Source of the DNA: an uncultured Chloroflexia bacterium
Lineage (GTDB): Bacteria; Chloroflexota; Dehalococcoidia; DSTF01; JALHUB01
DNA length: 64,000 nt
Direction: 5' to 3'
NCBI GenBank assembly: GCA_963835655.1
Contig: CAWIGJ010000003.1
Span: 1,011,380 to 1,075,379 of the forward strand
Part shown: positions 2,417 to 62,983 of the stretch, in pieces
Position numbering within the stretch: position 1 is the first letter of the stretch
Layout: each line of letters opens with the position of its first letter
The notes under the pieces: generated by a model
The model's input: the letters and a program-made list of their open reading frames with translations, nothing else
Told to the model about the DNA's origin: nothing
The model's database searches: none
Translations under genes and position numbers: made by a program

Positions 2417-2618
2417 CGCCGCCTTCCTCTTCCGCTTCCTTCAGTCGCTCAATGCGGCGTCGGCGTTGCATCTCTGACGAAGTCACGATTGCGAGCGCGA
2501 GCAGTGTTCCCACCAGGAAGCCTAGCCATATCTGGCCTCGCTTAGTCAATGCCACGCTCCTTTCTGCGCCGAAGCCTGGCCGGCGCTCCGACCGCCAGCG
2601 TATTCGGAGGAACGTCAT
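2403..2618 (-). CDS. Small single-TM hypothetical protein (possible start TTG near 2549); its TM resembles CorC TM1
   Basis: The ORF overlaps the glmU stop. It contains a hydrophobic helix IWLGFLVGTLLALAIVTS similar to the WVALGLLVGTILLMALVTA helix of the downstream CorC. Confidence 0.25.
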   Translation of the reverse strand: MTFLRIRWRSERRPGFGAERSVALTKRGQIWLGFLVGTLLALAIVTSSEMQRRRRIERLKEAEEEGGGEQQ

Positions 2619-3935
2619 GGTTGACGATCGAGCCGGCCGCCGTTTGCGCCCCAGCGCCGACTTCGACCGGCGCGACGAGCATCGTGTCGCTGCCGATAAA
2701 GGCGCTGTCGCCGATGATGGTCCGGTGCTTGCTCACGCCGTCGAAGTTGCAGGTTATCGTGCCGGCGCCGATGTTCACCTCGTCGCCGACCTGCGCGTCG
2801 CCCACGTAGCTGAAGTGTCCCATCTTCGTGTTGCGCCCGATGCGCGAGTTCTTCACCTCAGCGAAGTTGCCGATGTGCACGCCGCTGCAGACGTACGCGC
2901 CGGCGCGTAGATGACTGAACGGCCCGACATCGATGTTGTCCTCCAGCGTCGACTCCTCGATGACCGACGAATCGACGCGGCAGCGAGAGCCGAGCGTAGA
3001 CTCGATAACCTGGCTGCTTGGCCCGATGACGCACTCCTCGCCGATGACCGACTTGCCGCCGAGATAGGTGTTCGGATAGACCGTTGTGTCCATGCCTATC
3101 GTCACATCGGCGTCGATATAAGTTGTTGCTGGGTCGACGATCGTAATGCCCGCCAGCATGTGACGCCGCCGGATGCGGTCTCGAAGCACCGCCTCGGCCT
3201 GTGCCAGTTGAATGCGGTCGTTGATGCCCAGCGCTTCCGCCGGGTCGCCAGCAGGCACGGCAAGGATGGTTGCGCCTTCGTCGACGCCAATGCTGACCAG
3301 GTCGGTCAGGTAGTACTCTCCGGCGGCGCTCCGCTGAATGCCCGGCAGGCGTGGCCAAAGCCATTCAGCGCGGAAGCAGTAGACGCCCGCGTTCACCTCG
3401 TTCCCCGCTAGTGTCGCCTCGTCAGCATCTGCCTCTTCGATGATTCCGCTCACTCGTCCCGAATCGTCGTGCTGTACGCGCCCCTGTCCGCGCGGATCGT
3501 CGACGAGAGCGGTCAGGAAGGTGAGGTCGGCCTTCGCCTCAAGGTGGCGTGTCATCAGAATCTTCGATTGTGCTTGCCGAGATGAGCGGGACATCCGCGT
3601 TGATGACGAGGATGTGTGCGCTGTCCTTCGCCGCGTCCATCGCCTGCGCGACGGCGTGCCCGGTGCCTAACTGCTCCGTTTGCTCCACCGGTCCGCACCG
3701 AGCCGTCGAGCGCGGCTGAGACGTGCGCCGCCTCATGCCCGACGACAACCACGTAGCGGGCCGGACGCTCGGCAGAGTCGAACGCGCTGCGGACGGCCGT
3801 TAGCACGTGCACCAGCATCGGCCGCCCGGCGAGCGAATGCAGTGCCTTCGGTTTCTTCGACCGCATGCGCTTGCCGAGGCCGGCTGCCAGAACAATCGCC
3901 GTCCAATCCTCTGCCATCAGCTCACCCTGCAACAA
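2542..3935 (-). pseudogene. glmU: glmU (bifunctional UDP-GlcNAc pyrophosphorylase / GlcN-1-P acetyltransferase) interrupted by two +1 frameshifts
   Basis: Three consecutive minus-strand ORFs in three different frames (3555-3935, 3539-3748, 2542-3594) together tile one colinear GlmU. They cover the N-terminal LAAGxGxRM motif, the EQLGTGHA motif and the C-terminal left-handed beta-helix hexapeptide repeats. Single-base indels at about 3686-3693 and 3551-3565 restore one frame. Confidence 0.75.
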
Positions 3936-3995
3936 AAAAGGCCGTCGTCACGCCCGAGACGTGCGCCAACCGGCCAACGTCGCCCGCCACAAAGC
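3936..3995 (-). terminator. Imperfect GC-rich hairpin followed by TTTTTTG immediately upstream of glmU and downstream of the small-membrane-protein operon
   Basis: The minus strand reads ggccgttggcgcacgtctcgggcgtgacgacggcc followed by ttttttgttg. Confidence 0.3.
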
Positions 3996-4196
3996 GGACA
4001 CCAGGTTTGTCGCTATTGTCGTTATCGTCCAGAGGGCCGTCTAACACCGGCTGGTGTAACCCCCGTTCATACGAATAGTATCGACGCTGTTCCGGCCCTG
4101 TCAAGATAGGGACTATTGAGGATGCGGCAGCGTCAGGAGTTGAGGCGCGACTACCGTTCCTCGCGGTTGACTACTCGCACGATGGGGACTTTCCTC

Positions 4197-4568
4197 CTAG
4201 CGCTTCCTCTGCGATTGACCGAAACGCCAGGCTGTCCGAAGGATCAGATTCTTCTCGAACGCCTCCTTCATCTGAGGGTTCTCAGCCATCTTCTTCTCGA
4301 CGAAATCCAGTCGCTTGTCGGTCAGCCAAGCTCCAAAGCACATCTGCAAAAACACAATGCACCCTAGCCCAATGGTCAGCAAGGCTGTGAACGGAACATC
4401 CTTCGAGTAGAACAGGGACACGAACCCTATGAAGAAAATGACCAGCGTGCCTATCCAGATAGAACGTACGCCTAATGAACGAAAGTGGATCCCATGCCAG
4501 AGCAGGAAAACCACAGACATAATCAGTGTAACGTCTGCCACCGCGAGAACTACAATTGCAGCCCACAT
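4197..4568 (-). CDS. Small multi-TM hypothetical protein (123 aa) in the low-GC islet
   Basis: Hydrophobic ORF with a GGGGAGG RBS upstream of the ATG. Local GC is about 50% against about 65% in the flanks. Confidence 0.55.
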   Translation of the reverse strand: MWAAIVVLAVADVTLIMSVVFLLWHGIHFRSLGVRSIWIGTLVIFFIGFVSLFYSKDVPFTALLTIGLGCIVFLQMCFGAWLTDKRLDFVEKKMAENPQMKEAFEKNLILRTAWRFGQSQRKR

Positions 4569-4584
4569 CGGCTAACCTCCCCTA

Positions 4585-4944
4585 TTATCGACCACATTTC
4601 CCCAGATCATGGCACAGTTGGTAAATGGCGGCCGCGCTTCCTATATTCGGCTCCGCTATTCTGTAGCCCATCTCGGCCCCCGCCTGCATGAGTGGCGTAA
4701 GGAAGCGGAACACGGCCATGCCAATCGCAATAGTGATGAGTCCCACCACCACGGTTGCAACAGAAAACTCAGGAAGGGTGTACGCGAGCCATGCGACGAG
4801 ACCTAGTAGGAAGCCAATTAATGTCGCCTTGTTCCGGGTGAGGCTCCGTCGGACTGCCCAGAGCACGAAGACCCACATCAAAACGTATGCGACCGCTGAC
4901 ACTGCTGCGATGCGAATTAGTACTTCAGACGTTGTTACACCCAA
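4585..4944 (-). CDS. Small multi-TM hypothetical protein (119 aa, TTG start)
   Basis: Hydrophobic ORF with a GGGAGG RBS before the TTG. It lies 17 nt upstream of the previous gene on the same strand. Confidence 0.5.
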   Translation of the reverse strand: MGVTTSEVLIRIAAVSAVAYVLMWVFVLWAVRRSLTRNKATLIGFLLGLVAWLAYTLPEFSVATVVVGLITIAIGMAVFRFLTPLMQAGAEMGYRIAEPNIGSAAAIYQLCHDLGKCGR

Positions 4945-5186
4945 CCTCCCTGGAGGAGATAATCTTCTCCGCTCGGCTCTTCTATTGGCCCCCGAATCCG
5001 ATGCACGCGTCTAGCCAACGCCGCAGTCTGGAAACTGTCTACGTGAGCACGGTTTCAGGTCAGGGCGCGTTCATGCTGCCGCCTTTTGGCTCGAGAGATC
5101 GCAGAACAAGAGAGTGACACTGGAGGCATCCACGCTAGGCTACCGAGCATTGCCGAAACGCAGACCCCGAACAGAGACCCGTCCCC

Positions 5187-5228
5187 TAGCAGGGCGGCGG
5201 GATTTGAACCCACGACCTGGCTGCAACC
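5187..5228 (-). other. tRNA 3'-half remnant (T-arm plus acceptor 3' strand, no D-arm or anticodon arm); candidate att-site relic
   Basis: The minus strand reads GGTTGCAGCCAGGTCGTGGGTTCAAATCCCGCCGCCCTGC. It folds as a T-stem GTGGG/CCCGC with a TTCAAAT loop and a 7-nt acceptor strand. No 5' half is found nearby. Confidence 0.45.
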
Positions 5229-5247
5229 TTTTCCGATTGCCCTGATG

Positions 5248-5421
5248 TCAGCAACGCCTCAACAGCCAAGCCGAACCAATCGCGAGTATGGCGACGAACC
5301 CTAGACTTATGGCAAGCGATAGCGGAGTCGCAACGCCAACAACTACCTGGAGGCCAATCATCCAGAAGCTGGCCCACGCCACGAGGAGGATCAGAAGCAC
5401 GCTTTTTCGAATCGAGAGCAT
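5248..5421 (-). CDS. Unannotated 57-aa two-TM protein (MLSIRKSVLLILLVAWASFWMIGLQVVVGVATPLSLAISLGFVAILAIGSAWLLRRC)
   Basis: Not in the ORF track because it is under 60 aa. It has a strong RBS GGAGGAGG 6 nt before the ATG, which overlaps the stop of the upstream gene. It sits in the same low-GC operon. Confidence 0.45.
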   Translation of the reverse strand: MLSIRKSVLLILLVAWASFWMIGLQVVVGVATPLSLAISLGFVAILAIGSAWLLRRC

Positions 5422-5431
5422 CTCCCTCCTC

Positions 5432-5770
5432 CTACCGAACCAGCGACGAAACGGCCTCGATCAGGATCGCTCCAACGACCATCAGAAGCACCGATCCAAC
5501 CGAAAAGAGGACAAAGAAGCGTGCGGCAAGACGCGTGGATTGCTGAATGCGCACATCCTTCTGCTCGTCCCCTGTCGTCCCAAAGCAAAAGTAGCCAACA
5601 GATGGAATCATCTTTGCCACTGCCCTGCGATATCGCTCGGGCGTAAGTGCGAGGCAAAGACGTAGTCCAGTGCGAGGAAACCATTCTGGTTCCCGGAACA
5701 TCATGATGAAGAACGCCGCCAGAGAACTGATGGCAACGAGAACCACTAGGGCTTGCGCGACTTCTTTCAA
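5432..5770 (-). CDS. Small multi-TM hypothetical protein (112 aa, TTG start)
   Basis: Hydrophobic ORF and first gene of the four-gene small-membrane-protein operon. Confidence 0.5.
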   Translation of the reverse strand: MKEVAQALVVLVAISSLAAFFIMMFREPEWFPRTGLRLCLALTPERYRRAVAKMIPSVGYFCFGTTGDEQKDVRIQQSTRLAARFFVLFSVGSVLLMVVGAILIEAVSSLVR

Positions 5771-5845
5771 GGCTCCCGCTCCCTATTCTCGGTGCGGATG
5801 AACAGGCGCAGTACTATCCACTAATCTTACCAATCTTGCTTAACT

Positions 5846-5875
5846 CGCATGAGGATAGCGCCACAATAAGATTAT
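5846..5875 (-). promoter_or_regulatory. Candidate sigma70-type promoter for the small-membrane-protein operon (TTGACA, 17 nt, TATTGT)
   Basis: The minus strand reads ttgacaaaggtctcccataatcttattgt about 80 nt upstream of the 5770 start. Confidence 0.25.
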
Positions 5876-6166
5876 GGGAGACCTTTGTCAAGGAATAAGA
5901 CTCGGAAGCAGAGCCGAGTCCTGAATGCTCGTAGTGCCACTACTATCTTAGACGTCGCCTCGAACTGTGCTTAAATGGGACATGCCTCGGACCGTTCCGC
6001 CGCCGCTCCAGCCTCCAAGACGCGTAGTGCGGGCATCCCTGGTCGCCGCAGGCGGCCTGCCCGCACCTGCTCTCTTCCTGCGCCCGGTCAGCGACAACGC
6101 ACGCTCCCGCTCACCCGCAACTCCGCCTTAGAGAGGGCTCTTTTTTTCTTGAATTCAAACAGACAA

Positions 6167-8402: not shown

Positions 8403-8500
8403 ATTGCCTCCGGTTCGGCTAAACAGCGTACTACAGGCGCGTAAGCAGCGACAAGGGCCCGGGTCGAACGGATGCGTTCAGCGAGGTTCGCGAGTGATAG

Positions 8501-8905
8501 TTAGCGGGTGTGGCTGTGCTTCTTGAACCAACCCTGGAGCTTGTCCACGAAACTCGGCCCTGAGAGGTCGACGACCTGGCCGCGCCACCGCTTGTCCGGC
8601 CGCCGCCGGTGGATGACGAAGGACAAGCCGATCGTCAGTCCGAGAAGGGCGAGGCCGGCAATCATGGCGTACTGCCCAATTGGGCTCGAGCGGAAGACGA
8701 ACGCCATGAACACAAGGATCAGCGAGATTACGAGCAGATACCCCAGCGAGGCATGCGTGAGCAGCGCACCGAGGCGGGCCATGAAGGCATGGACGGCCGA
8801 GCCGACCCTCGTGCGTAAGCCGCTGCGCGACTTCTCCTCAGGAATGAAGTCGTCCAGCCGGTCAAGGATTTCTTCGATCTCGCGCTGGAGTTGGTCCGCC
8901 ATCAT
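8501..8905 (-). CDS. Hypothetical membrane protein (134 aa)
   Basis: ORF with two predicted TM helices. No recognisable domain. Confidence 0.45.
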   Translation of the reverse strand: MMADQLQREIEEILDRLDDFIPEEKSRSGLRTRVGSAVHAFMARLGALLTHASLGYLLVISLILVFMAFVFRSSPIGQYAMIAGLALLGLTIGLSFVIHRRRPDKRWRGQVVDLSGPSFVDKLQGWFKKHSHTR

Positions 8906-10372: not shown

Positions 10373-10457
10373 GGCAAAAGCGAATGGAGGCGAATTGACC
10401 GCGAATGCGGCCCCTACCTAGAATTAACGCGACCTAAGCATAACTGCGGAATCATCG

Positions 10458-10778
10458 ATGGTCTACTGCACGTTCTGCGAAATCGTCGCCGGCAAATCAC
10501 CCGCGGAGATCGTCTACGAGGACGAGGAAGTGGTGGTCTTCCGTAACCGGCTACGCTGGGTGCCGGTCATGCTGCTCGTCGTTCCCAGACAACACATGAG
10601 CCAGGAGGACTTGTGGCGAAACCTGGGGCACGTCGGCGACGTGGCTGTGCAGATGGGCGAGAGGTTCTGCCCCAACGGCTTCCGGCTGCTCTCCAACTTC
10701 GGCGCCGATGCCCTTCAGACCCAGCATCACGGCCACATCCACGTCCTGGGGGGCGCCTGGCTCGGGCAGTATGCCTGA
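10458..10778 (+). CDS. HIT-family (histidine triad) nucleotide hydrolase
   Basis: Contains the HhHhHhh motif (HHGHIHVLGG). Confidence 0.8.
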   Translation: MVYCTFCEIVAGKSPAEIVYEDEEVVVFRNRLRWVPVMLLVVPRQHMSQEDLWRNLGHVGDVAVQMGERFCPNGFRLLSNFGADALQTQHHGHIHVLGGAWLGQYA

Positions 10779-18014: not shown

Positions 18015-19242
18015 CCTTGTGAAGACCGCCCTCGGTGCCCTACGCGACGCCTTCGACGTGTTCCGGCACACGTTCACGCTGGGCCTGCTCTCGCTGGGGC
18101 TCGCCATCGTCATCTGGTTCGTCGTCAGCGACGCCCAGAACCCGCCCAAGCGAGGCTTCTTCTCCGGCACCATCCCGGTGGAAGCAGTGAACGTGCCCCA
18201 AGGCAAGGCGCCAATCGAGGCCGCGCAGGTCCAGATCGAGATATCCGCAGATTCTGACGTCTGGAATGACCTCACCATCGGCGACTTCAAGGCAACAGTC
18301 GACCTCTCGAGCATGACCCAGGCCGAGGCCAATCTGCCGGTGCATGTTGCCGCCTTGCGAAACGATGTTGACATAATCCGCGCCGTCCCTTCGTCGGTCG
18401 ATGTCACGCTCGAGCTCACTACGACTGAGTCGAAGCCGGTGAAGATAAACACTGTCGCCGTGGCGCCTGTGGGCTACAGCGTGACGGATGAAAAGGTAAG
18501 CCCAGACACCGTGGAAGTCAGTGGGGCACAGAGTCTTGTCGCACAGACCGATGCCGTCTGGGTCGACCTCAACCTGACCGGCGTCCAGACAAGCATGGAG
18601 CGCGACTACACTCTGGTCGCCCGCGACAAGGATGGCCGCCAGGTGAACGTCAAAATCGAGCCGAATACGGCAAAGGTCGCTGTGACGGTCGTTAGGACGG
18701 AGTGGATGGAGACCTTCCCCGTCAACCCCTCGATTAGCGGCAATGTCGCTACTGGGTACTCCGTCACCGGTGTCGAGGTCGACCCTCCGTTCGTGAACGT
18801 TCGCGGCCCTGTCGACGTGCTCCAATCGATCTCGGTTCTGACGACCGATGCGATTCCCGTCGATGGGGCGGAATCGGATGTCCAGCGCAGCGTACAGCTT
18901 CGCCTTCCGCCGGGTGCCACGGTTGATGGCGGTAGCGAGGTTGTCGTCCACGTTCGCGTCGCGCCCGCGGAGGGGCAGCGCAATCTTCAGGTCGCCGTAC
19001 AGGTGATGGGCCTGAAGCAAGGCTTGGTCGCCACCCTCTCGAACGAGGATCTGGTCGCAACGCTTGCTGGCTCATTGCCGGCGCTCAATGCTCTCACCGG
19101 CGATGACGTGACTGCGACGATCGATGCTTCCAACCTGACCGTCGGCACATACTCGCTCACTCCCAAGATCAACCTGCCAGCAACCATGCAACTCATCGGC
19201 GTTTCCCCGCCTGAGATCCAGGTGACGGTCACTTCCCAATGA
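17998..19242 (+). CDS. cdaR: CdaR (YbbR-domain regulator of CdaA)
   Basis: The GTG at 17998 follows RBS GGAGGG in the ORF-track frame. N-terminal TM helix followed by repeated YbbR-like beta domains. Overlaps cdaA by 17 nt. Confidence 0.7.
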   Translation: MLSPGDLVKTALGALRDAFDVFRHTFTLGLLSLGLAIVIWFVVSDAQNPPKRGFFSGTIPVEAVNVPQGKAPIEAAQVQIEISADSDVWNDLTIGDFKATVDLSSMTQAEANLPVHVAALRNDVDIIRAVPSSVDVTLELTTTESKPVKINTVAVAPVGYSVTDEKVSPDTVEVSGAQSLVAQTDAVWVDLNLTGVQTSMERDYTLVARDKDGRQVNVKIEPNTAKVAVTVVRTEWMETFPVNPSISGNVATGYSVTGVEVDPPFVNVRGPVDVLQSISVLTTDAIPVDGAESDVQRSVQLRLPPGATVDGGSEVVVHVRVAPAEGQRNLQVAVQVMGLKQGLVATLSNEDLVATLAGSLPALNALTGDDVTATIDASNLTVGTYSLTPKINLPATMQLIGVSPPEIQVTVTSQ

Positions 19243-20614
19243 GCTCCCGCGCGCGTTCAGGGACGAAGCCAGCCGGTCAGCAAGCATCATCCGAAGCCGG
19301 ATACCCTATCGTAGCCCTCGTTGGCCGGCCGAACGTTGGGAAGTCTGCTCTGTTCAACCGCATAATCGGGGGACGCAAGGCCCTCGTCGAAGAAGCGGCT
19401 GGGACGACTCGTGATCGCGTTTACGGCGACATCGAATGGCGAGGAAAGCGCATTCGGCTCGTCGACACCGGCGGCCTGCTCATGGACGGCTCGTTGCCGT
19501 ACAGTGAACTCGTCCGAGCCCAGGTGGAGGTTGCGGCCGACGAAGCCGAAGTAATCCTCTTCGTGGTCGATGGTAAGGAGGGCCTGACCGCCGGGGACCG
19601 CGATGTGGCCGATCACTTGCGACGCGTCGACAAGCCTGTCATCCTCGTCGCCAACAAGACCGAGAGCGAGAGCCGTCGCGAGTCGGCCGTCGAGTTCTAC
19701 GAGCTTGGCCTCGGCGAGCCGTTTGCCGTCAGCGCCTTGCACGGCATGGGCGTCGCTGACCTGATGGACATGCTGGCTGACTTGCTTCCAGAGTCGCTAG
19801 CGCCGGAAGCGCTCGACAACCCTTTCAATCGCCATCGTCGGACGGCCGAACGTCGGCAAGTCGATGCTGACGAATGCTATCCTCGGCGAGGAGCGTGTCA
19901 TCGTCAGCGAGACGCCCGGCACGACGCGCGACAGCGTTGACACTCTCTTCGAGTTTGATGGGCATAAGCTCACCCTTATCGATACGGCAGGCATCCGTCG
20001 AAGAGGCCGTATTGAGGTTGGCGTGGAGAAGCACTCGGTGCTGCGAGCGCAGGATGCGGCGCAGCGGGCCGACGTGGCGCTCGTGCTTATGGACGCCGGC
20101 GAAGGGCTCGCGGCGCAGGACGCGCACATTGCCGGGCTTATCGTGGACAGCTTCGTCGGAATGGTGCTGGTAGCCAATAAGTGGGACTTGGCGCCGCCTG
20201 AGCCTTCCTATCGAAAGGAATTCGAACGTCTCCTTCGCTACCGCCTGCGCTTTGCGCCCTGGGCGCCGCTTTGCTTCGTCTCCGCGAAGGAGCGCACCGG
20301 CGTCGACGAACTGCTGAAGGAGGCCCTGCGCGTCGGTGAGGAGCGACAGAAGCGATTGCCGACAGCTGAGGTGAACGCCGTCGTACAGCGGGCGATCGGC
20401 GAGCGAAGCCCGCCCTTCGACGCAGGGCCGCAAGCTGAAAGTGCTCTACGTGACGCAGGCTCAAACAGCGCCGCCGACTTTCGTCTTCTTCGTCAACGAT
20501 GCCTCCTTGCTCCACTTCTCCTATCGTCGCTATCTTGAGAACCGGTTGCGGAAGGCTTACGGCTTCGAAGGCACGCCGCTGAAGCTCATCTTCAAGAGCA
20601 GAGGGGAAAAGTAG
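19239..20614 (+). pseudogene. der: GTPase Der/EngA (tandem GTPase domains plus KH-like C-terminus) carrying two frameshifts
   Basis: Domain 1 is in the 19239 frame with G1 GRPNVGKS. Domain 2 with its G1 (IAIVGRPNVGKSMLTNAILGEE) continues in the 19864 frame. The C-terminal RKLKVLYVTQAQTAPPTFVFFVNDASLLHFSYRRYLENRLRKAYGFEGTPLKLIFKSRGEK lies in a third frame and ends at 20614. The shifts are near 19821-19835 and 20415-20435. Confidence 0.75.
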
Positions 20615-21247
20615 ATGGCCTGGCAGCTTATCGTCGCCGCCATCATCGGCTATCTGCTCGGCTCCATTCCCGGCGGCTACGTCATGGGGCGCCTGACCCG
20701 CGGCATCGACGTACGTGACTACGGCAGCGGCAAAACGGGCGCCACCAACGCGATGCGGACACTCAGTCTTTGGGCTGTTCTCGGCGTGCTGGTGATCGAC
20801 ATCGGCAAGGCAGCGGCGGCGGTTTCCATCGCCCGCGTTCTCTCAGATAGCGCATGGGCGCAGGCGTTGGCGGGCATAGGTGCGTTTGCCGGACACGTCT
20901 GGCCGCTGTACCTTGGCTTCCGCGGTGGACGGGGTGTCTCCGCTGCTTACGGCTCCCTCCTTGCGATGAACCCACTAGCCAGCCTGGCGCTGCTTCCCAT
21001 CGCCTTGCTGATTATCGCTGTTACCCGCTACATGTCACTGATGTCGATTTCGATGGCGCCGATTGCCGCCGCGCTCTTCCTGGCGCTGGCAATAGCAGGC
21101 GTGTTGCCTTATGCCTACTCTGTCTACGGCATGGTCGTTGCGGCGATGATCGTCATCCTTCACTACGACAACATCCGCCGCCTGCTTTCAGGCACCGAGC
21201 GGAAGATCGGTCAGAAGGAGCTGCAACGGACCGGAGGCCGTTGGTGA
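20615..21247 (+). CDS. plsY: Glycerol-3-phosphate acyltransferase PlsY
   Basis: 210-aa polytopic protein with PlsY motifs (GSGNPGATN-like GSGKTGATN). Confidence 0.85.
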   Translation: MAWQLIVAAIIGYLLGSIPGGYVMGRLTRGIDVRDYGSGKTGATNAMRTLSLWAVLGVLVIDIGKAAAAVSIARVLSDSAWAQALAGIGAFAGHVWPLYLGFRGGRGVSAAYGSLLAMNPLASLALLPIALLIIAVTRYMSLMSISMAPIAAALFLALAIAGVLPYAYSVYGMVVAAMIVILHYDNIRRLLSGTERKIGQKELQRTGGRW

Positions 21248-21768
21248 AAAGCGTAGCTGTCGTCGGCTCCTCAAGCTGGGGCACCGTCCTCGCGGTCCTC
21301 TTCGCCCGCAACGGCTTGCCGGTCCGCCTCTGTGCCTATGACGAGGCCGATGCGGAAGCGCTTCGTCGTGGCGGCGAAAACGCGCGACTTGAGCCTGGCC
21401 TGCGTTTCCCTCCTGTACCGCGCCTTGGAATCGCGGCTGGCGCCCAACCGCTGACCCTCCTCGGCCTCGCGGGCGTCGGCGATCTCATGGCCACCTGCTA
21501 CAGCCCCCTCAGTCGCAACCATCGCGTCGGCATCGAGCTGGCGAAAGGACGCTCGCTCGACGAAGCTCTTGCCTCACTCGGCCAGGTCGCTGAGGGCGTG
21601 GCGACGACCGTTGCAGCCCGTGGACTGGCTCTTCGCTACCGGGTCGAGATGCCTATCATACAGATGACCTATCAGGTGCTCTTCGAAGGGCTGGACCCGC
21701 GCCGCGCCGTCGCCGAATTGATGCTTCGGGCGCCCCGTCACGAACTCCACGGAGTCGGCCGGAAGTGA
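21244..21768 (+). pseudogene. gpsA: gpsA (NAD(P)H-dependent glycerol-3-phosphate dehydrogenase) with an in-frame internal deletion
   Basis: The N-terminal Rossmann fragment (VAVVGSSSWGTVLAVLFARNG…LEPGLRFPPVP) is fused directly to the C-terminal fragment (RLGIAAGAQPLTLLGLAGVGDLMATC…VEMPI…). About 150 central residues, including the KGIE catalytic region, are absent. The ORF is 175 aa against about 330 expected. Confidence 0.7.
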
Positions 21769-38252: not shown

Positions 38253-39332
38253 CTACTCCGTCAACTGGATGAAGTGGATGAGGCTGGCTGCATCGTAGAC
38301 GCCTTTGACGGCGCCCGTCGTTATCTCCGACTTGACGAACCGCCCCTTCACCTCGCAGTGATTCCCTGTGCAGCCGCCGTCACCGTAGCCCTCCAGGAAG
38401 AAGAGCGCGAATCCGTTGACGGTGACGTAGCAGCGCCCTCCGCAAAGGTCGTCGACGATGGGAACAATGACCACGCGCAGGCTGGGCAGGCTGTCTTCAA
38501 CAAATGGGTTGCACTGCTGCACGATAGAATAGCCGCCGGCCTCGTTTGCCGTGAACACCTTGTCGAACGTATCGCAAGACGTGCTGGTGTTGTTAATACG
38601 GTAGTCGACGCCTGTCCTCGTTGGACCCGTCATGTTGCCCGGCTCCGTTAGGCACTCTCCATCGTGGCATTCCGGAGCCGTATCCACGCAACCTAAAGCA
38701 ACGGCTGGCGCTGAGCAGACGGTAGTCTGAGAGCCGTGCTCGATCTCCTGTCGATAGGTACTCGATCCCGTTCCGTCGATCGCCATGCCCCCGAAGTCGC
38801 CGTTGTCTCCTCCCGTGGAGTCATACTTGAGCGTTACCTCACCGCCGACGCCGGCGTCGTCGATTTCACTCTGGAGGACGGCCCACGGGACGACTCCGTC
38901 GCTGCCCCCTGGCGAAGTCTTTATCGCTGTCGCGGTGGCGGTCAAGTCCGCTGAATCAACGCCGATAACCGGGGCAAGCTGGTAATCATGTTGCCGTTGA
39001 AGCCTGACAGTGATTTGTGGATTGGGATGGCCGGACGATTGCTGCTCTACGCTGATGGACTCAATCTGGTCCGGCTGAACACCATTCTTCGCTGCCCATT
39101 GCGTGGCGGACGCGACGGCGGCCTCTTGGTTGGGCAGATCAATGGCGCCGGCCAGCGCCATCGCATCCGCTGCGTTCTGCAGGTCTCGCTTATCATGAGC
39201 AAGCGACCCGATATCGATAGCAAGGGCGCTGAAGCCGATCAGGCCCACAATCATCGCCCCCATAAGAACGACTATCTGTCCGTCTTCACTCCCTCTGAGA
39301 CCCACAAGAATCCGGGACAAGGTACGCATCAC
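38253..39332 (-). CDS. TadG-like pilus assembly protein (TadE/G-like N-terminus plus a large C-terminal domain)
   Basis: N-terminal TM helix followed by GSLAHDKRDLQNAADAMALAGA, typical of the TadE/G family. Confidence 0.6.
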   Translation of the reverse strand: MMRTLSRILVGLRGSEDGQIVVLMGAMIVGLIGFSALAIDIGSLAHDKRDLQNAADAMALAGAIDLPNQEAAVASATQWAAKNGVQPDQIESISVEQQSSGHPNPQITVRLQRQHDYQLAPVIGVDSADLTATATAIKTSPGGSDGVVPWAVLQSEIDDAGVGGEVTLKYDSTGGDNGDFGGMAIDGTGSSTYRQEIEHGSQTTVCSAPAVALGCVDTAPECHDGECLTEPGNMTGPTRTGVDYRINNTSTSCDTFDKVFTANEAGGYSIVQQCNPFVEDSLPSLRVVIVPIVDDLCGGRCYVTVNGFALFFLEGYGDGGCTGNHCEVKGRFVKSEITTGAVKGVYDAASLIHFIQLTE

Positions 39333-39333
39333 A

Positions 39334-39761
39334 CTACTCCAATCGCATGTTGGAGGATGACGAAAGGTCGAAGTAGCCCGGGAAACTCCCGCCCGAAACC
39401 AGCGTGAAGACGCCCGCCAGTGGCGTAATCAGGTTGTATCGATAGTTTGCGCTGACGACGACCGAATTCCCCGGTGCCTGCCCACTTGGATACGTGACAG
39501 AGACCGACGCTAGGTCCAAGCCGGTCGCCGTGTCGCACACACGGCGAACAACCGTCCCCGACTGGGCGCCGGAACAACCAGTCCATGTTCCCGCCGGGTT
39601 GCCAACCACAGCAAAGCGCGCTCCCTCACGGGTAGCGTTCGTCAACTGTATGTAGGACTTGAATCCCATCCCGAAGTCGACGATGCTGAGCGCGAGCAGC
39701 AAGAGGATTGGCAGCACCACGACAAACTCGACCAAACTCTGACTTCGTTCTGAAGACAACC
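39334..39761 (-). CDS. TadE-like protein
   Basis: Start MFQRLSSERSQSLVEFVVVLPILLLLAL. The long ORF-track N-extension is judged spurious. Confidence 0.6.
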
Positions 39762-40020
39762 TTTGAAACATCTCCTCCACTCCCCAGTCTGCTGTTCTCT
39801 CAGCGAATGCAAAAAGCCACCGGCGCGGCCGCCAGTGGCTGACGTGCTCCCCCTGAACCAGCTTTCGGCGGCCCGGCTGCCATGGTCGATTCAAGATCGA
39901 ACTTTAGGCCCGAAGCTTTGCGTCCCGTCCTTTCGAACGGTTTGCCGTTTGTCGAGCAGAACCCAACAACGGGTTCTACTCTTTCAATCGGATGATTGCG
40001 GGAAATCTGCTGCAGGTTGC

Positions 40021-49624: not shown

Positions 49625-49701
49625 GGGCCGCTAGCTCAATTTGGCAGAGCAGCTGACTCTTAATCAGCCGGTTCCAGGTTCGAGTCCTGGGCGGCCTACC
49701 A
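49625..49701 (+). tRNA. tRNA-Lys (anticodon CTT)
   Basis: Cloverleaf folds as GGGCCGC/GCGGCCT acceptor, GCTC/GAGC D-stem, GCTGA/TCAGC anticodon stem with loop CTCTTAA, and a CCAGG/CCTGG T-stem with a TTCGAGT loop. CCA is encoded. Confidence 0.9.
49655..49701 (+). repeat. attL core: the 3' 47 nt of tRNA-Lys, identical to 62920-62966
   Basis: Exact 47/47 match: gactcttaatcagccggttccaggttcgagtcctgggcggcctacca. Confidence 0.85.
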
Positions 49702-49714
49702 GAAAACGAATCTA

Positions 49715-49740
49715 GAAAGGCCCCCTTCGAGGGGCCTTTC
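49715..49740. terminator. Perfect hairpin GAAAGGCCCC cttcga GGGGCCTTTC, likely a bidirectional terminator between tRNA-Lys and the first element gene
   Basis: 10-bp perfect stem. T-rich flank on the minus strand (TTTCTAGATTCGTTTTCTGG). Confidence 0.45.
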
Positions 49741-49758
49741 TGCTTACCTTCCTTAGCA

Positions 49759-49778
49759 TTTGCTAACATTTTGCTAAC
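49759..49778 (+). repeat. Two direct copies of TTTGCTAAC (plus an overlapping TTAGCA/TGCTAA inverted repeat) just inside attL; candidate integrase arm sites
   Basis: ccTTAGCAtTTGCTAACatTTTGCTAACgc. The same 9-mer pair occurs at 62768-62789. Confidence 0.5.
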
Positions 49779-50169
49779 GCTCGTGTGGGCGGTAGTGTCC
49801 CACTAGAAACGCCAAGTGCGCGGTACTCATCAGGAAGGCGGTCGCCTTCGGTCCGACCGACGTTGAACCTGTGGCCTCCCTACGGTGCATAAAGAAGAGA
49901 AGATTGGTCGTTAGGAGAGCGAGGGCGGCTCTCTCTATATCCGTTTTGTGCGAAGCGTCCGCCGCGACGACACAAGCCGCTATATAGTCAAAGGCCTTGT
50001 CCGAATGAAGTTCAGGCTTAGAGACGTTCAGTTGTTTTGCTAACTGACGGAGGGTCTCAAGCACAATCTCATTTCCAGTATTTGGGTCTGTGTCAGCATC
50101 TTCCACTTGCTTGAGCCAAGCGACAGCCTCGGCTTCCCCCAATAGATCCATTTCGCTGTTCTCATCCAT
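49774..50169 (-). CDS. Hypothetical protein (131 aa), element cargo
   Basis: ORF only. No recognisable motif. Confidence 0.4.
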   Translation of the reverse strand: MDENSEMDLLGEAEAVAWLKQVEDADTDPNTGNEIVLETLRQLAKQLNVSKPELHSDKAFDYIAACVVAADASHKTDIERAALALLTTNLLFFMHRREATGSTSVGPKATAFLMSTAHLAFLVGHYRPHER

Positions 50170-50173
50170 CTTG

Positions 50174-51316
50174 TCACCTACTGAACACTAGCGCCGCCAC
50201 CCGCTCTGCGGCGTCCTCTTGCAAGCCGGGGATAACGGCGCTGTAGACGTCGAGGGTAAAGGCGACGCTGCTATGTCCGAGCCGTTCACTGACCACTTTC
50301 GGGTGAACGCCAGCGGCCAACGCAAGGCTGGCGTGACCGTGGCGCAAATCATGCAGCCTTATCGTGGGCAGGCCAGCCGACTTCACGAGGAGCTGGAAAT
50401 GGCCCGAGAAGGACTCGGGGTTTACGGGGCCGCCGTCCGGCGCCGTGAATACCAGCGCCTCGGCGTCGGGCGCCCCTAGTCCAAGAGTCATGCGATCTTC
50501 CAGCACCCGCTTGCGGTGAGCCCTGAGAACGGCGATCGTGGTCGTGTCTAGGCTGATCTTGCGGTTGCCCCGGCCTGTCTTCGGCTCGCTCGAAAGGATT
50601 TGCCCCTTCACGCTGATAAGCGTCTGATTGACGCTGAGGTGGCCAGCCTTGAGGTCTAGGTCACACCACCTTGCCCCCAGTGCTTCGCCGCGTCTCATGC
50701 CCGTGGTGGCGAGTAGGAACAGGGGCTGGTAGTAGTAGTCACCTTCTATATGTCGGAGGAATTGGCCCAGTTGGTCAGCGTTCCATGTCCGAAGGGTATG
50801 GTTACGCTGCTGCTTTGGTGGGCTTGCAGCAGCGGCCACGTTCCTAGTCACGTCACCCCATTTGAGGGCTTCGCCCAATGCGCGGTGCAACGTCGCGTGG
50901 CAATAGCGCACCGTTCGGGGCGATAAACCGCCCTTGCCCTGGCGCCGGCCGCTTTCCAGGAGTTCAGCGTAAAGGCTATTCAACTGGCCGGGGGTGAGTT
51001 TCTGCAACGGCGTGCTACCTATTCGCGGCTTGATATAGCTTTCGACTATCAGCCGGTAGCCCTCGAGCGTTGACGCGCGGACGCTGGCCCGCGCCTGATC
51101 CAGCCATCGCGTCAGGAACATGGCCAGCGTTTCCCGTGAGGGCTCTACAAGGTTGCCCGTGGCGTAGCGCTGAAGCGTCTCCGTTAGCCCGGCCTCGCAC
51201 TCTTTCCGCGTACGAAATCCGCCCTTAGTCCGCTGCCGACGCCGGCCCTTTTCGTCGCGGCCAACGTCGAGCGTATAGCTCCAGGTCCTGCCCCTCTTGC
51301 CGACGTGTCCTTTCAT
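50174..51316 (-). CDS. Tyrosine-type phage integrase
   Basis: Catalytic box R…HDLRH…LGHSSVAFTLDVY. Adjacent to attL and tRNA. Start probably the internal Met (MKGHVGKRG) next to the upstream gene stop. Confidence 0.85.
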   Translation of the reverse strand: MKGHVGKRGRTWSYTLDVGRDEKGRRRQRTKGGFRTRKECEAGLTETLQRYATGNLVEPSRETLAMFLTRWLDQARASVRASTLEGYRLIVESYIKPRIGSTPLQKLTPGQLNSLYAELLESGRRQGKGGLSPRTVRYCHATLHRALGEALKWGDVTRNVAAAASPPKQQRNHTLRTWNADQLGQFLRHIEGDYYYQPLFLLATTGMRRGEALGARWCDLDLKAGHLSVNQTLISVKGQILSSEPKTGRGNRKISLDTTTIAVLRAHRKRVLEDRMTLGLGAPDAEALVFTAPDGGPVNPESFSGHFQLLVKSAGLPTIRLHDLRHGHASLALAAGVHPKVVSERLGHSSVAFTLDVYSAVIPGLQEDAAERVAALVFSR

Positions 51317-52221
51317 GATTGCCCTCCTCTGTGTTCTCGCGCCCATGCGCGATCCCGACAGCGCTTGTCATGGTACTCTTGCAGCCCGTGGGCGACGCCG
51401 AAGAGACGCCCGCAACCTTTGCAGAGCTGCCATCGTTTACCGGCCGCTAGGTCTTCATAGAGTTGCAGCCACATGGCAGTTTCTAAGTCGCCACAGCTCG
51501 ATCCACCTTTGATTCTGCCACCATCAATGGAGAGCCCTAGCCGAACGCTCTCCAACCGTTCCCAGAACACCGACGCCAAGCGAACCTGCTTCTCCTCTAG
51601 GTCCGGATCGTCGTCGAACTCCTCTGCGTCTCGTACCTGCTTCACGAGCCGAACGGCCTCAGAGAACTCGATGGCTTGTATAAGCAAGCGCCAGAGAATG
51701 ATCCTGACTTTGCCGTCCGCGTCCTCCAGATCGGCGAAGATGGGGCGCGGCGGTGATTGCCGAGTGTAGATAATGCCGCCCGGTAGAGGTCGCGGAAGGA
51801 CTGGCCCCCAATTGACGACGAACGCTCGCGCCTCGCGCTGGATCGCCCCGTTGAACGAGGCGTATATGGCAAGGGTTTCCGCAGAATCTTCGCCGCTCGG
51901 TGCCGACCTTTGCCCTGCGTCCTGCGCATGCTTTCCTAGCGCGGCGAAGTCGCTGTAGGGCTGCGGCGTCAGTCTGAGCGGCTCATACCCCTCGCGGCTG
52001 AAGTCCACGAGCGCGCCGTCAAACTGTAACGCGACGGGGTCGCCGCCGACGCGCCAGTGCTGCCTGTTTCCCTTCGGCCACCAAAAGACCGTGAAAGTGT
52101 CGTCGCGTTTCTGCATTTCGGCCCCTATCTCGGCGGAAATCGGCTTGGCCTCGTCTATTATTGCACGGTACCATACCAGTGTCAAGCGATTAGAAGGGGA
52201 TAGGAGCAGAAAAAATGACAC
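51313..52221 (-). CDS. Hypothetical protein with a C-terminal CGNR-like zinc-finger (CxxC…F…C-R-x-R…HR)
   Basis: C-terminus RWQLCKGCGRLFGVAHGLQEYHDKRCRDRAWAREHR resembles the zf-CGNR signature. The N-terminal ~35 aa may be an over-extension. Confidence 0.4.
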   Translation of the reverse strand: MSFFLLLSPSNRLTLVWYRAIIDEAKPISAEIGAEMQKRDDTFTVFWWPKGNRQHWRVGGDPVALQFDGALVDFSREGYEPLRLTPQPYSDFAALGKHAQDAGQRSAPSGEDSAETLAIYASFNGAIQREARAFVVNWGPVLPRPLPGGIIYTRQSPPRPIFADLEDADGKVRIILWRLLIQAIEFSEAVRLVKQVRDAEEFDDDPDLEEKQVRLASVFWERLESVRLGLSIDGGRIKGGSSCGDLETAMWLQLYEDLAAGKRWQLCKGCGRLFGVAHGLQEYHDKRCRDRAWAREHRGGQS

Positions 52222-52439
52222 AGAAGAATGCGATGGCGGTAGACGTTCGCCGGCTGCCGCCGACGGTCACCGTTCCCGAAGCGGGTAGCTTGCTGGGAAT
52301 CAGTCGCGGGTCCGCTTACGAGGCCGCCCGTACGGGGCAAATCCCGGCCCTGAGAATCGGGGCGCGCCTCGTGGTGCCTACGGCGCAGTTGCTCCGGCTT
52401 CTAGAGGGTGTGCCCACCGAGCCGAAGCCGGGCGCCTGA
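52215..52439 (+). CDS. Excisionase/AlpA-family HTH DNA-binding protein
   Basis: VTVPEAGSLLGISRGSAYEAARTGQIPALRIGARLVVPTAQLLRLLEG matches the excisionase-family HTH pattern. Divergent from the integrase. Confidence 0.65.
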   Translation: MTQKNAMAVDVRRLPPTVTVPEAGSLLGISRGSAYEAARTGQIPALRIGARLVVPTAQLLRLLEGVPTEPKPGA

Positions 52440-52549
52440 GCCGACAAGGGCCGTGAGCACGTTGACTGAACTCCGTCCTGCGCGCGCTTTGTGCCCGCGC
52501 TGCCAATTTCGGTTCGAGCTTCTTTCGGAAGTCCGGGTAGAGGATAGCG

Positions 52550-53527
52550 TTGCCTGCCCCAAGTGCCATGTCGTGGTTTGCCCCGAACGGGAGCCGCTCG
52601 ACCAAAGTTGGTGGGCTTGGGCGAATAGCAGAGGGGCAGACCGTGAATCTTGACGACATTCTCCCGCTTCTCGATTCGCCCGCCGGCGATCCTTTCGGCG
52701 GGAAGCCGGTTGCGCCGGACCGTCACACGTGGTTTTTCTGCCCCGTTCATGCGGATGGCAGCAAGCACGGGCGCCGCTCGGCAACCTTTCACCCCCGCTA
52801 TGGCCTGACCTGTTTCGCCGGCTGCGAAAGGCGCGACATCATTGCCGCGCTCCAAAAGCGCGGCGGCGTTCATCCCGCCCATACACCGAGCGACAGCAGC
52901 CCCGCGCATCGCTCGAGGTCAAAAGCGATCCCTGGCCGGATCGTCGCCCGCTACCCGTACCCCGACGAAAGGGGCCAGTTGCTGTATGAGGCCCTACGCA
53001 AGGAGACGGCTGACGGCAAGACATTCCTTTTGCGGCGGCCTAACGGCATGGGCGGCTGGATTTGGAACATTGACGGCATGCGCCGTGTCCTCTATCGGCT
53101 TCCCGAACTCCTGGCGGCTGACCCTAGCGCCTTTGTTTTCATCTGTGAGGGCGAGAAGCGCGTTGATGCGCTTGCTCGGCTCGGCCTCACGGCGACAACA
53201 AACGTAGGCGGCGCCGGGAAGTGGAAACCCGCCTGTAACGACTATCTTCGCCGCCGGCGCGTCGTGATCCTTCCCGACAACGATCCGCCAGGAGCCGAAC
53301 ACGCTGAGCAAGTGGCGCGCTCACTTATGGGCGTCGCCGCTGAAGTCCGCGTGATCGTGCTGCCCGGCCTGCCTTTCAAGGGCGACATCATTAACTGGCT
53401 TGCTGCTGGCGGCAACCGCGAAATACTCCTAGCCCTGGCAGAGCGCCCGCCGACGGAGCGGCCATCTTCCGCCGACTTCCCGAAAGCCGTCCGGGTGAGC
53501 GTCCTTAACGCCGCAGGAGTTGCCTGA
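52550..53527 (+). CDS. Phage/plasmid primase (CHC2 zinc finger plus Toprim)
   Basis: CPVHADGSKHGRRSATFHPRYGLTCFAGC (CHC2). Toprim glutamate in ICEGEKRVDAL and DxD in ILPDNDPPG. Confidence 0.75.
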   Translation: MPAPSAMSWFAPNGSRSTKVGGLGRIAEGQTVNLDDILPLLDSPAGDPFGGKPVAPDRHTWFFCPVHADGSKHGRRSATFHPRYGLTCFAGCERRDIIAALQKRGGVHPAHTPSDSSPAHRSRSKAIPGRIVARYPYPDERGQLLYEALRKETADGKTFLLRRPNGMGGWIWNIDGMRRVLYRLPELLAADPSAFVFICEGEKRVDALARLGLTATTNVGGAGKWKPACNDYLRRRRVVILPDNDPPGAEHAEQVARSLMGVAAEVRVIVLPGLPFKGDIINWLAAGGNREILLALAERPPTERPSSADFPKAVRVSVLNAAGVA

Positions 53528-54750
53528 TGCCTCAGCCTAGCACGCGGGAGGAAGTTGCCATCGTCGCATTCGGTGACGGCTCGCACACCGACCGGGAGCA
53601 AGTTCTGGAAGTGGTAAGCCGCTGGCTGAGAATCGGCGACCTCGAGGCGGTCGACGTCATCATGGCAACCGCTATCGCAATCTACCTGCCGGGCGATCCC
53701 CTTTGGCTTCACGTTGTAGCTCCACCTGGAGGCACCAAGAGCGAGTTACTGCGGTCGCTACAGGGGCCAAGGGTCGTCAGCATTTCCACCATGACGCCGC
53801 AGACGCTCATCTCGGGCCTCAAGGGGCACGGTGAGGACATCGACCTGCTGCCTAAGCTCGATGGCAAACTGCTTATCATCAAGGACTTCACGTCCATTCT
53901 TTCAAAGAAGTCAGAGGACCAGGCGGCAATCTTCGCCGACTTGCGCGAAGCATATGACGGCTATCTTGAAAAGTCCTTCGGCTCCGGCGTCGGGATAAAG
54001 GGCTACAATGCCAGTTTCGGACTCATTGCGGGCGTCACGCCCGCGATAGACATGTTCCGGACTGTCCATTCCTTGCTCGGCGAGCGCTTCCTTCGGGTCA
54101 ATGTTGTTGGCGATGAACAGGGCGCCGTCACGCGCTCCAGTGAGCTTGAGGGCCAAGAGAAGACAATGCGCCAAGAGCTCGGCGCCGCTGTCGGCGGCTA
54201 TCTCACGCATGCCGGCGAATGGGTTGACCCCGACGTGCTGGTAGAAGAGCGTTTCCTTCAGCAGCTCCGGGCACTGGCACAGCTCACGGCTGCCCTGCGT
54301 TCCCCCGTCGCTCGCGACCGTCAGCACCACGTCCTCTATTCGCCTCAGCGTGAGATAGGTACGCGGCTCGTTAAGCAGCTTCAGAAACTTGGCAAGGCGC
54401 TCGCCAACTGGCGGGAACGCCTGATAGTCAGCGCTGAAGATTACGCTACCGTTCGTCGCGTCGCGCTTGACTGCATACCGAGCGGACGAATTGCCGCCCT
54501 GCGGCCGCTCCTAGAGGCGGATACGTGGCTATCGACAAAACAGGTAGGGCAAGCCGCTAACCAGCATACCGACACCGCAAACGAGCATCTTCATGACATG
54601 TGGATGCTCCATCTCCTACAACGCGAAGGTGACGCCGCCTATTCATGGGCAGTAGCGGATGAAACCCGCCAACTGCTAGGAAGGGCGGCTATCGACCTAC
54701 GGACGCAAAACACCCTGAGTAGGCTAGATGAGGCAATGGAATGCCCTTAA
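53527..54750 (+). CDS. Primase-associated P-loop NTPase / replicative helicase-like protein
   Basis: Walker-A-like VVAPPGGTKSE and Walker-B-like KLLIIKDF. Start overlaps the primase stop (ATGA), suggesting translational coupling. Confidence 0.45.
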   Translation: MPQPSTREEVAIVAFGDGSHTDREQVLEVVSRWLRIGDLEAVDVIMATAIAIYLPGDPLWLHVVAPPGGTKSELLRSLQGPRVVSISTMTPQTLISGLKGHGEDIDLLPKLDGKLLIIKDFTSILSKKSEDQAAIFADLREAYDGYLEKSFGSGVGIKGYNASFGLIAGVTPAIDMFRTVHSLLGERFLRVNVVGDEQGAVTRSSELEGQEKTMRQELGAAVGGYLTHAGEWVDPDVLVEERFLQQLRALAQLTAALRSPVARDRQHHVLYSPQREIGTRLVKQLQKLGKALANWRERLIVSAEDYATVRRVALDCIPSGRIAALRPLLEADTWLSTKQVGQAANQHTDTANEHLHDMWMLHLLQREGDAAYSWAVADETRQLLGRAAIDLRTQNTLSRLDEAMECP

Positions 54751-54811
54751 TTGTTAAGACTCAAGGACGCAAAACACCCTGTGCAAGCACGAGGACAAAT
54801 ATAATTTGTCC
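54701..54811 (+). promoter_or_regulatory. Origin-like region: two 17-bp direct repeats GGACGCAAAACACCCTG (54701-54717 and 54765-54781) followed by the AT-rich palindrome GGACAAATATAATTTGTCC (54793-54811)
   Basis: Read directly. Located at the 3' end of, and just after, the helicase-like gene. Confidence 0.5.
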
Positions 54812-55091
54812 TTTTAGAACGTCGGCGGCTACTGGGGGTACTTTGCGCCCCTGGCCTACTGCCTGCCAACAAGCGCGTGTGCTACCCGCTCCGGCCACAA
54901 AATCACGCGGCGACAGCCGCCCAAGCGGTAGGCTCAGTGGATGCGGCAGAACGAAGGCCCTGCCATGACTGCCACCAAAGAGGACTCGGCCCGTGAGCAA
55001 AGCGTTAGCAGGCAAGCGGGATCGAATCTGGAAAAGGCCCAGCAGCGGATTGGTAGTCAGCGGGATTACACACTAACGGAGTCTGACTAGG

Positions 55092-57000: not shown

Positions 57001-57028
57001 CACTGCCGGGGTAGGAAAGGAAACGGAA

Positions 57029-57391
57029 ATGGCGACAGGAACCTCAAACGAGAAAGTCAGGGAGCACCTGAAGACGCTGAGTGAACAGATGCGCCTTCGC
57101 TACAACGTGCTGGAGGACCGGCGCGCGGCTGAAGAGGCGGGCAACTCAGTGATTCCGCCAGGGCTGCCAGGAGAAACATTCGGCTTCAAGACGACAACGC
57201 GAATCGACGCGCCGGCCATCATGAAAGTTGACCCGAAGGCTAACGCTGCCATGAAGCAGCGGCTCCAGAACGTGTTGGGCGTTGCGAAGCTGCTTGGTGT
57301 TCCCGAAGACAAGGCGCGAGAACAGTTCGAGCGGGAACAGGCAGGCCAGCGGCCGCTCGATAACACCGTGCCGGGATTCAAGGGAGTGTAA
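57029..57391 (+). CDS. Hypothetical phage protein (120 aa)
   Basis: RBS GGAAAGGAAACGG. ATG at 57029 follows terL. Confidence 0.45.
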   Translation: MATGTSNEKVREHLKTLSEQMRLRYNVLEDRRAAEEAGNSVIPPGLPGETFGFKTTTRIDAPAIMKVDPKANAAMKQRLQNVLGVAKLLGVPEDKAREQFEREQAGQRPLDNTVPGFKGV

Positions 57392-57394
57392 ACC

Positions 57395-59748: not shown

Positions 59749-59757
59749 CACGGGGCA

Positions 59758-62966: not shown

Positions 62967-62983
62967 GTGAAGGATCGCTGGCC

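Follow-up and report, generated by a model that had tools for sequence, protein, structure and literature searches.

A low-GC islet of four small membrane-protein genes, probably an orphan immunity remnant of an Rhs toxin locus, in an uncultured Chloroflexia bacterium

Four small genes, named here o112, o57, o119 and o123, lie on the minus strand between the genes for GlmU and an acyl-CoA carboxyltransferase (pccB) in a 64-kb stretch of DNA of an uncultured Chloroflexia bacterium (contig CAWIGJ010000003.1, positions 1,011,380 to 1,075,379; hereafter the window, to which coordinates refer unless another locus is named). Together they form a low-GC islet of ~1.8 kb, which is probably a horizontally acquired orphan immunity remnant of an Rhs polymorphic-toxin locus. 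The locus would have lost its toxin gene but kept the genes of the small inner-membrane proteins encoded with it. A preliminary description of this DNA had proposed a bacteriocin-type immunity set, a holin/antiholin-like set or a membrane toxin–antitoxin system as the cargo of the islet. The immunity option is the one that gained support, from an o119 homologue coupled to an Rhs toxin gene, from a 33-nt toxin remnant in the window and from Rhs sequences found beside the o112–o57 pair in other loci.

The central evidence concerns o119. Its homologues P0006 (the closest, 80% identical), P0007, P0009 and P0010 are all 103–109 aa long. P0006 is encoded in loci L082–L084, where a full-length Rhs gene (~1560 aa), a 308-aa gene, a 486-aa orphan Rhs fragment and the P0006 gene follow one another in this order. 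The P0006 gene directly follows the variable C-terminal domain of the orphan Rhs toxin; it overlaps the toxin stop codon, starting 4 nt before it, and has a GGGAGG sequence 6 nt upstream of its GTG start. The 486-aa orphan Rhs gene (L082 8544-10004) carries RHS_repeat/YD-shell domains and ends in a tail of 195 aa after the DPTGL cleavage motif. Within this tail, a stretch of ~65 residues is hydrophobic, contains 21% glycine and has a single charged residue. Neither the C-terminal domain of the L082 toxin nor a 153-aa protein of L085 matched any Pfam or NCBIfam model. By its composition alone the tail looks like a membrane-inserting toxin, and this hydrophobic tail and the immunity candidates, with their two to three membrane helices, are predicted to share the same compartment.

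The window retains a trace of the same junction. DNA homology to L082 starts at 4971 and stops at 4662 (Table 1), and includes the 3′ end of a toxin reading frame: the peptide GEDYLLQGGWV, followed by a stop codon, aligns with GEDYLGVGGWA and the stop codon that close the orphan Rhs gene of L082. This 11-codon remnant upstream of o119 implies that o119 once sat behind such a toxin, which has since been deleted. No Rhs sequence beyond the 33-nt remnant was found in the 64-kb window, and the 303-nt spacer that separates o57 from o119 has no similarity to the Rhs core beyond the last 11 toxin codons. Over 95 codons, the ratio of nonsynonymous to synonymous substitution rates (dN/dS) between o119 and P0006 is 0.20. 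This comparison includes the 22 N-terminal codons of o119, where the differences from P0006 are mostly synonymous, and the database calls that start o119 at Met23 (97 aa) are therefore too short.

The other genes are connected with Rhs sequences through further loci. The o112 protein has a basic loop of ~55 aa with a conserved Y-x-x-[FL]-GTTGD motif in addition to its two membrane segments, and homologues were found in L090 (577-921, 114 aa, z 16.7) and L092 (2361-2693, 110 aa, z 26); the ratio of nonsynonymous to synonymous differences per site (pN/pS) is 0.59. The o57 protein is predicted to be a two-helix membrane hairpin, and its 58-aa homologues follow the o112-like gene in L092 (z 7.9) and L090 (z 3.5), with a dN/dS of 0.44. 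For o123, which has a conserved charged C-terminal helix (EKKMAExP.MKEAFEKNLILR) besides three membrane segments, the homologues are P0008 (124 aa) and P0011 (145 aa), with dN/dS values of 0.25–0.39. In L090/L091 the order is an o123-like gene, an o112-like gene, an o57-like gene, a 75-residue remnant of an Rhs core and the T-box-like leader of a housekeeping gene; in L092 an o112-like and an o57-like gene precede an Rhs core-end fragment (…GARFYS…GRFLSPDP…RYAYVRNN). In both cases the o112–o57 pair is thus immediately followed by what is left of a decayed Rhs core. Overall, Rhs sequence lies within 1 kb in four of the eight independent loci that carry any of the families. Rhs genes being rare in genomes, this proportion is far above chance. 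The o123 gene and the o112–o57 pair are placed near toxins only through such linkage to Rhs remnants, so that a role as immunity proteins is inferred for them from linkage only.

Some further observations were made in these loci. Downstream of the Rhs remnant, the region 1470-1760 of L090 contains a promoter-like TTGACA…TATACT sequence, after which comes a long, structured leader; it contains a T-box-like motif (GGGTGGTACA) as well as a terminator. The L090 cassette also adjoins the housekeeping gene directly. In L092, a glycine-rich open reading frame (ORF) of 105 aa (2005-2322) lies between the gene of a 633-aa surface protein and the o112-like gene. It was considered as a relative of the toxin tail and rejected (z −0.9 against the L082 toxin tail); it had no NCBIfam match, and it may not be a real gene, its GC content at third codon positions (GC3) being the lowest of the three positions. 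A paralogy of o119 and o123 was also considered. Pairwise Smith–Waterman comparison of the two gave a z of 4.9, independent profiles left common ancestry unconfirmed (hhalign probability 0.75%, E 0.075), and comparisons of hidden Markov models with shuffled sequences gave p values from 0.0003 to 0.66, mostly non-significant.

The composition of the islet is atypical. Its GC content (4105-5900) is 0.547, against a window mean of 0.617 (standard deviation 0.018 in 1.8-kb windows), which makes it the lowest-GC stretch of its size in the 64-kb window. GC content is thus not uniform and the low-GC islet of the preliminary description stands; the value of about 50% given there does not, except in local 300-nt minima (0.507–0.517, the 300-nt windows of the islet spanning 0.507–0.59). 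GC3 is 0.59–0.66 in the islet genes versus 0.70–0.82 in neighbouring genes, and because it is also low, the low GC content exceeds what a bias towards hydrophobic amino acids would produce by itself. The coding strand is rich in T. The four co-directional minus-strand ORFs were recovered where they had been reported, and all four are indeed hydrophobic, with a grand average of hydropathy of 0.66–1.65 and with two (o112, o57) or three (o119, o123) membrane segments predicted on the Kyte–Doolittle scale. No recombinase or mobility gene adjoins the islet, and no convincing direct or inverted repeats bounding it were found. A genome scan based on pccB returned a best relative of 66% identity and no locus with shared synteny. 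On the pccB side, the spacer 5950-6130 between pccB and the promoter-like site of the islet is GC-rich and otherwise unexplained, and a terminator-like hairpin with a T-run lies on the plus strand just past the pccB stop codon (6125-6147), where no plus-strand gene ends.

Table 1. Genes and other features of the islet, in window coordinates
Feature	Coordinates	Strand	Remarks
o112	5432-5770	-	112 aa, TTG start
o57	5248-5421	-	57 aa, ATG start
o119	4585-4944	-	119 aa, TTG start
o123	4197-4568	-	123 aa, ATG start
DNA homology to the L082–L084 toxin/immunity junction	4662-4971	-	310 nt, 84% identical
3′-terminal remnant of an Rhs C-terminal toxin ORF	4935-4971	-	last 11 codons and stop codon
tRNA-like 3′ fragment	5189-5245	-	T-arm GTGGG-TTCAAAT-CCCGC, acceptor CGCCCTG; directly after the o57 stop codon
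Sigma-70-like promoter match	5863-5891	-	TTGACA-17-TATTGT, consensus match only; ~90 nt upstream of o112

That the islet was acquired horizontally, as had been claimed, is supported by its homologues, since islet genes and homologues alike have an atypical GC3 in every host examined (0.59–0.70 for the family genes versus 0.75–0.93 for host genes). Membrane composition does not explain these low values, because multi-pass housekeeping membrane genes of the same loci (FtsW, MraY, SecDF) keep a GC3 of ~0.8. In L082 the Rhs genes are low in GC3 like the family genes, which fits a mobile pool of toxin and immunity genes. The families are also sparse, with only six members among 1.84 billion cluster representatives, and they diverge rapidly. 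In L087, L088 and L089 an o119-like gene occupies a conserved slot between the gene of a membrane-anchored SH3-like protein and a convergent aminotransferase gene; P0009 and P0010 are only 31% identical, versus 64% and 85% for the syntenic neighbours. Such fast divergence of o119-like genes relative to their neighbours is expected of immunity genes.

Pieces resembling tRNAs were found in two of the loci. The fragment in the window (Table 1) was not called by ARAGORN or by Rfam (E ≤10), neither of which reported anything in the islet, and it folds with a z-score of only −2.0. The orphan Rhs C-terminal/immunity module of L082 is flanked by a 123-nt direct repeat (8494-8616 and 10375-10497), which ends in a tRNA-Gly-like 3′ half with CCA that ARAGORN did not call either. 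No tRNA-like piece was found in L090 or L092. The fragments in the window and in L082 may be attachment-site remnants of cassette insertion.

Several observations bear on whether the four ORFs are genuine genes. When the region was shuffled 2000 times, a set of three ORFs of ≥110 aa, on the same strand and without overlap, appeared only 4 times, and under the host codon model the annotated frame is the best of six for all four ORFs, with scores far below those of host genes. The homologues match the islet proteins in size (110 and 114 aa for o112, 58 and 58 aa for o57, 103–109 aa for o119, 124 and 145 aa for o123), and the measurable pairs other than o119/P0006 have dN/dS values of 0.16–0.44. 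L001, a short-read contig assembled independently from a different sample and belonging to the same species (99.8% identity), covers positions 2669-5274; within the islet it differs by no indel and by one substitution, which amounts to a single amino-acid change. These comparisons indicate that o112, o57, o119 and o123 are conserved protein-coding genes under purifying selection. As same-size homologues occur elsewhere with dN/dS below 0.5, chance ORFs or fragments of a transporter gene are ruled out; the preliminary description had allowed for pieces of one larger disrupted transporter gene, and the homologues are all separate genes of the same small sizes. Frameshifts do occur elsewhere in the window, in the essential genes glmU (2542-3935), der/engA (19239-20538) and gpsA (20854-21768). 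Compared with the independent 99.8%-identical contig, where the gene is intact, glmU carries one extra nucleotide at each of two places (near 3688 and 3557); der is split in two overlapping ORFs, and the beginning of gpsA lies in another frame, overlapping plsY. These cases point to an indel-error-prone assembly rather than to real pseudogenes.

Expression signals are arranged as follows. The sigma-70-like match upstream of o112 (Table 1) is the only promoter-like site upstream of the islet genes, and their transcription would start from it. No terminator-like sites were found between the genes, and the 303-nt gap between o57 and o119 (4945-5247) folds no better than shuffled sequences. A ribosome-binding site (RBS) of sequence GGGAG lies ~8 nt upstream of the o112 start, that of o57 (GGAGGAGGGAG) overlaps the o112 stop codon, and that of o123 (GGGAGG) lies 7 nt before its ATG and adjoins the o119 stop codon; in o119, GGGAGG directly abuts the TTG start, with essentially no spacer. 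Strong GGAGG-type sites had been claimed for all four genes, which holds for o112, o57 and o123 and fails for o119, where the spacer is missing. The two stop/RBS overlaps, also described before, were found at the o112–o57 and o119–o123 junctions. Translation may be coupled from o112 to o57 and from o119 to o123, and a single operon of four genes is plausible.

Searches of curated collections gave no family assignment. With the four islet proteins, the best E-value in Pfam, NCBIfam, PADLOC and PHROGs was 0.0035 or worse, far below cut-offs, and profiles of the o119/o123 and o112 families found only matches of E ~0.5–1 in the PDB. No relatives of the o119/o123, o112 and o57 queries were seen in viral contigs, and none of o123 and o112 in plasmids. 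A word-based protein search also gave no homologue for o123 or o112, whose homologues surfaced only by exhaustive profile search and a metagenome scan; the profile search, run against 1.84 billion cluster representatives, returned six proteins. The exact o57 protein is already among the called proteins of collections derived from NCBI and ENA. An AlphaFold2 model of o119 (predicted local distance difference test 61.6, predicted template modelling score 0.32), too weak for a fold search, places helices at residues 5–32, 39–56 and 61–96 with low confidence. On these results, the islet proteins belong to previously undescribed families covered by no database family, and since no curated family, defence, phage or structure match exists, their function must be read from genomic context.

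Read in this way, the context suggests the following mechanism. The Rhs toxin tail would insert in the cytoplasmic membrane and dissipate the membrane potential, by analogy with the C-terminal domain of Tse5, with the ionophore toxins of contact-dependent growth inhibition (CDI) and with EsxX. The o119 protein would bind the membrane helices of the toxin within the bilayer and block channel assembly. Without a toxin of its own, the islet would protect the cell only against toxin-carrying neighbours. The o123 protein and the o112–o57 pair, by their linkage, may likewise be membrane immunity proteins, directed against related or different membrane-acting toxins.

The closest parallel is Tse5 (RhsP1) of Pseudomonas aeruginosa, an Rhs protein whose C-terminal domain inserts in the cytoplasmic membrane and depolarises cells (PMC9637101, PMC10684867); its neighbour Tsi5 (PA2683), a membrane immunity protein with two transmembrane segments, reverses the depolarisation (PMC9637101). 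Both cases combine an Rhs toxin with an adjacent small integral-membrane immunity protein, here predicted from the genes. They differ in that no sequence relationship with the islet proteins was detected, which no known family model matches, in that Tsi5 has two predicted membrane helices versus three in o119 and o123, and in that the toxin gene is absent from the islet. Moreover, Tse5 is delivered by the type VI secretion system of a proteobacterium, whereas the host of the islet is an uncultured high-GC bacterium. In CDI systems, the CdiI proteins that counter ionophore toxins (CdiA-CT EC93 group) are short, very hydrophobic, highly polymorphic and often unannotated ORFs that directly follow a membrane-inserting toxin domain with a putative glycine-zipper motif (PMC11630599). 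Their scaffold is CdiA rather than Rhs, no homology to the islet proteins was detected, and their specificity has been tested in experiments, whereas the islet proteins are known from sequence alone. Immunity genes without toxins have been described as well: SAIDI-1 of Salmonella Typhi is an acquired interbacterial defence (orphan immunity) islet (PMC7400221), and orphan rhs-CT/rhsI modules of enterobacteria are the subject of three reports (PMC3150448, PMC3967940, PMC10539506). As in the present case, immunity genes are kept without their toxins, often by truncated toxin fragments, with atypical composition and among housekeeping genes; the present islet differs by its size of only ~1.8 kb, by encoding membrane proteins exclusively, by its undescribed families and by the lack of an adjoining mobility gene.

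More distant parallels exist in Firmicutes. In the TspA/TsaI system of Staphylococcus aureus, TsaI membrane immunity genes form tandem arrays. EsxX is reported to be a membrane-depolarising glycine-zipper toxin countered by several immunity families (PMC12744356). Both systems resemble the proposed one in opposing membrane-embedded immunity proteins, of more than one family or in tandem copies per locus, to a membrane-depolarising toxin. They differ in that these toxins are type VII secretion (LXG) toxins, and the likeness is one of description only.

Several points weigh against an orphan immunity islet. An intact toxin stands beside a family member in one locus type only (L082–L084), the membrane activity of the toxin is read from the composition of a C-terminal domain that no family model matches, and orphan status is judged within the 64-kb window alone. 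The immunity role of o123 and o112–o57 is assigned by linkage only, and the common ancestry of o119 and o123 lacks confirmation by independent profiles. Some relatives also stand apart from any toxin: P0008 occurs alone between a MoCF-biosynthesis gene and trmD (trmD-rplS), and P0009 and P0010 keep their conserved syntenic slot among housekeeping genes. It is the latter settings, together with purifying selection in all pairs, that would fit lineage-specific small membrane proteins unrelated to toxins, with housekeeping tasks such as membrane organisation or stress response, beside which Rhs genes inserted incidentally. Proteins of this kind are an unlikely explanation, given their atypical GC3 in every host, the extreme sparseness of the family and a divergence much faster than that of syntenic neighbours; nor would they account readily for the 4-nt overlap of P0006 with a toxin stop codon, the toxin remnant in the window and the Rhs remnants that follow the o57-like gene in another two independent loci. 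Still, the o119 gene itself departs from its relatives. Its ancestral GTG start is GTA in the window, the only upstream start is the TTG with the zero-spacer RBS, the other possible starts being internal, and its last 25 residues (95–119) are unrelated to the K/R-rich tail of all homologues; o119 may thus be impaired or decaying.

Extended to the whole islet, such decay would leave a relic of former immunity or accessory genes, no longer expressed or functional in this host. Besides the lost start and replaced tail of o119, the reduction of the toxin gene to 33 nt, the unstructured 303-nt spacer and the low codon-usage scores agree with it, whereas four intact frames unlikely to arise by chance, three good RBSs and two coupling junctions that were kept, the dN/dS of o119 (N-terminal 22 codons included) and the unchanged sequence, save for one amino acid, in an independent assembly of the same species make a relic quite unlikely. 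A different function is imaginable for o112–o57, or for all four genes: a holin-like, export or lysis module serving Rhs-type toxins, or a membrane toxin–antitoxin pair. The proteins are indeed small, with two to three membrane helices and charged tails, and the o112–o57 pair always stands directly upstream of an Rhs fragment. However, PHROGs and PADLOC gave no matches, viral contigs and plasmids no relatives, and no endolysin or phage gene lies nearby; the intact Rhs locus of L082 has no o112 or o57 homologue from ~10 kb upstream to 1.5 kb downstream of P0006, and the neighbouring Rhs pieces are non-functional remnants rather than exportable toxins. This module is very unlikely; of the early proposals, the holin/antiholin set finds no support in phage families, viral relatives or lysis genes, and nothing argues for a membrane toxin–antitoxin system. 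Finally, a T-rich coding strand can by itself yield hydrophobic ORFs, and frameshifts in several essential genes suggest that the assembly contains errors. That the four frames are open merely by chance in non-coding DNA rich in T, or are pieces of a single disrupted transporter gene, is nevertheless hardly credible and is refuted by full-length homologues of matching size from other metagenomes, whose dN/dS stays below 0.5, apart from the rarity of the ORF pattern among shuffles and the lack of indels in L001.

Elsewhere, the window contains a prophage-like or integrative element (49625-63068) between tRNA-Lys(CTT) (49625-49701) and tRNA-Leu(TAG) (62984-63068), with a tyrosine integrase at 50174-51346 (PHROG 1, E 7e-70), a second integrase at 60253-61143, a terminase large subunit at 55621-57000 and a slightly lower GC content at its right end. 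A c-di-GMP-I-GGC riboswitch aptamer lies on the minus strand at 39863-39956 (63.7 bits, above the Rfam gathering threshold), upstream of the ORFs 39334-39894 and 38253-39332.

A bolder version of the orphan immunity reading can be put forward as a doubtful but conceivable extension. The islet genes may represent three to four undescribed immunity families that circulate among uncultured high-GC bacteria as a compact, toxin-independent poly-immunity cassette directed against new glycine-rich, membrane-inserting Rhs toxins, with the invariable pair o112–o57 and its GTTGD loop forming a new device of two subunits for immunity or toxin handling, in place of the usual single immunity protein. Because the principle of orphan immunity to polymorphic toxins is well established, the gain from the present case would be incremental. 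At the practical level, annotation should retain very short hydrophobic ORFs, such as the one of 57 aa in this islet. If the orphan immunity reading is true, it would illustrate how toxin loci decay to defence-only islets, with the toxin cut down to a 33-nt remnant. A candidate Rhs toxin acting on membranes, together with its immunity partner, would also be identified in an uncultured lineage that has received little study, and a clue to function would be gained for four hypothetical small membrane proteins without a database family.

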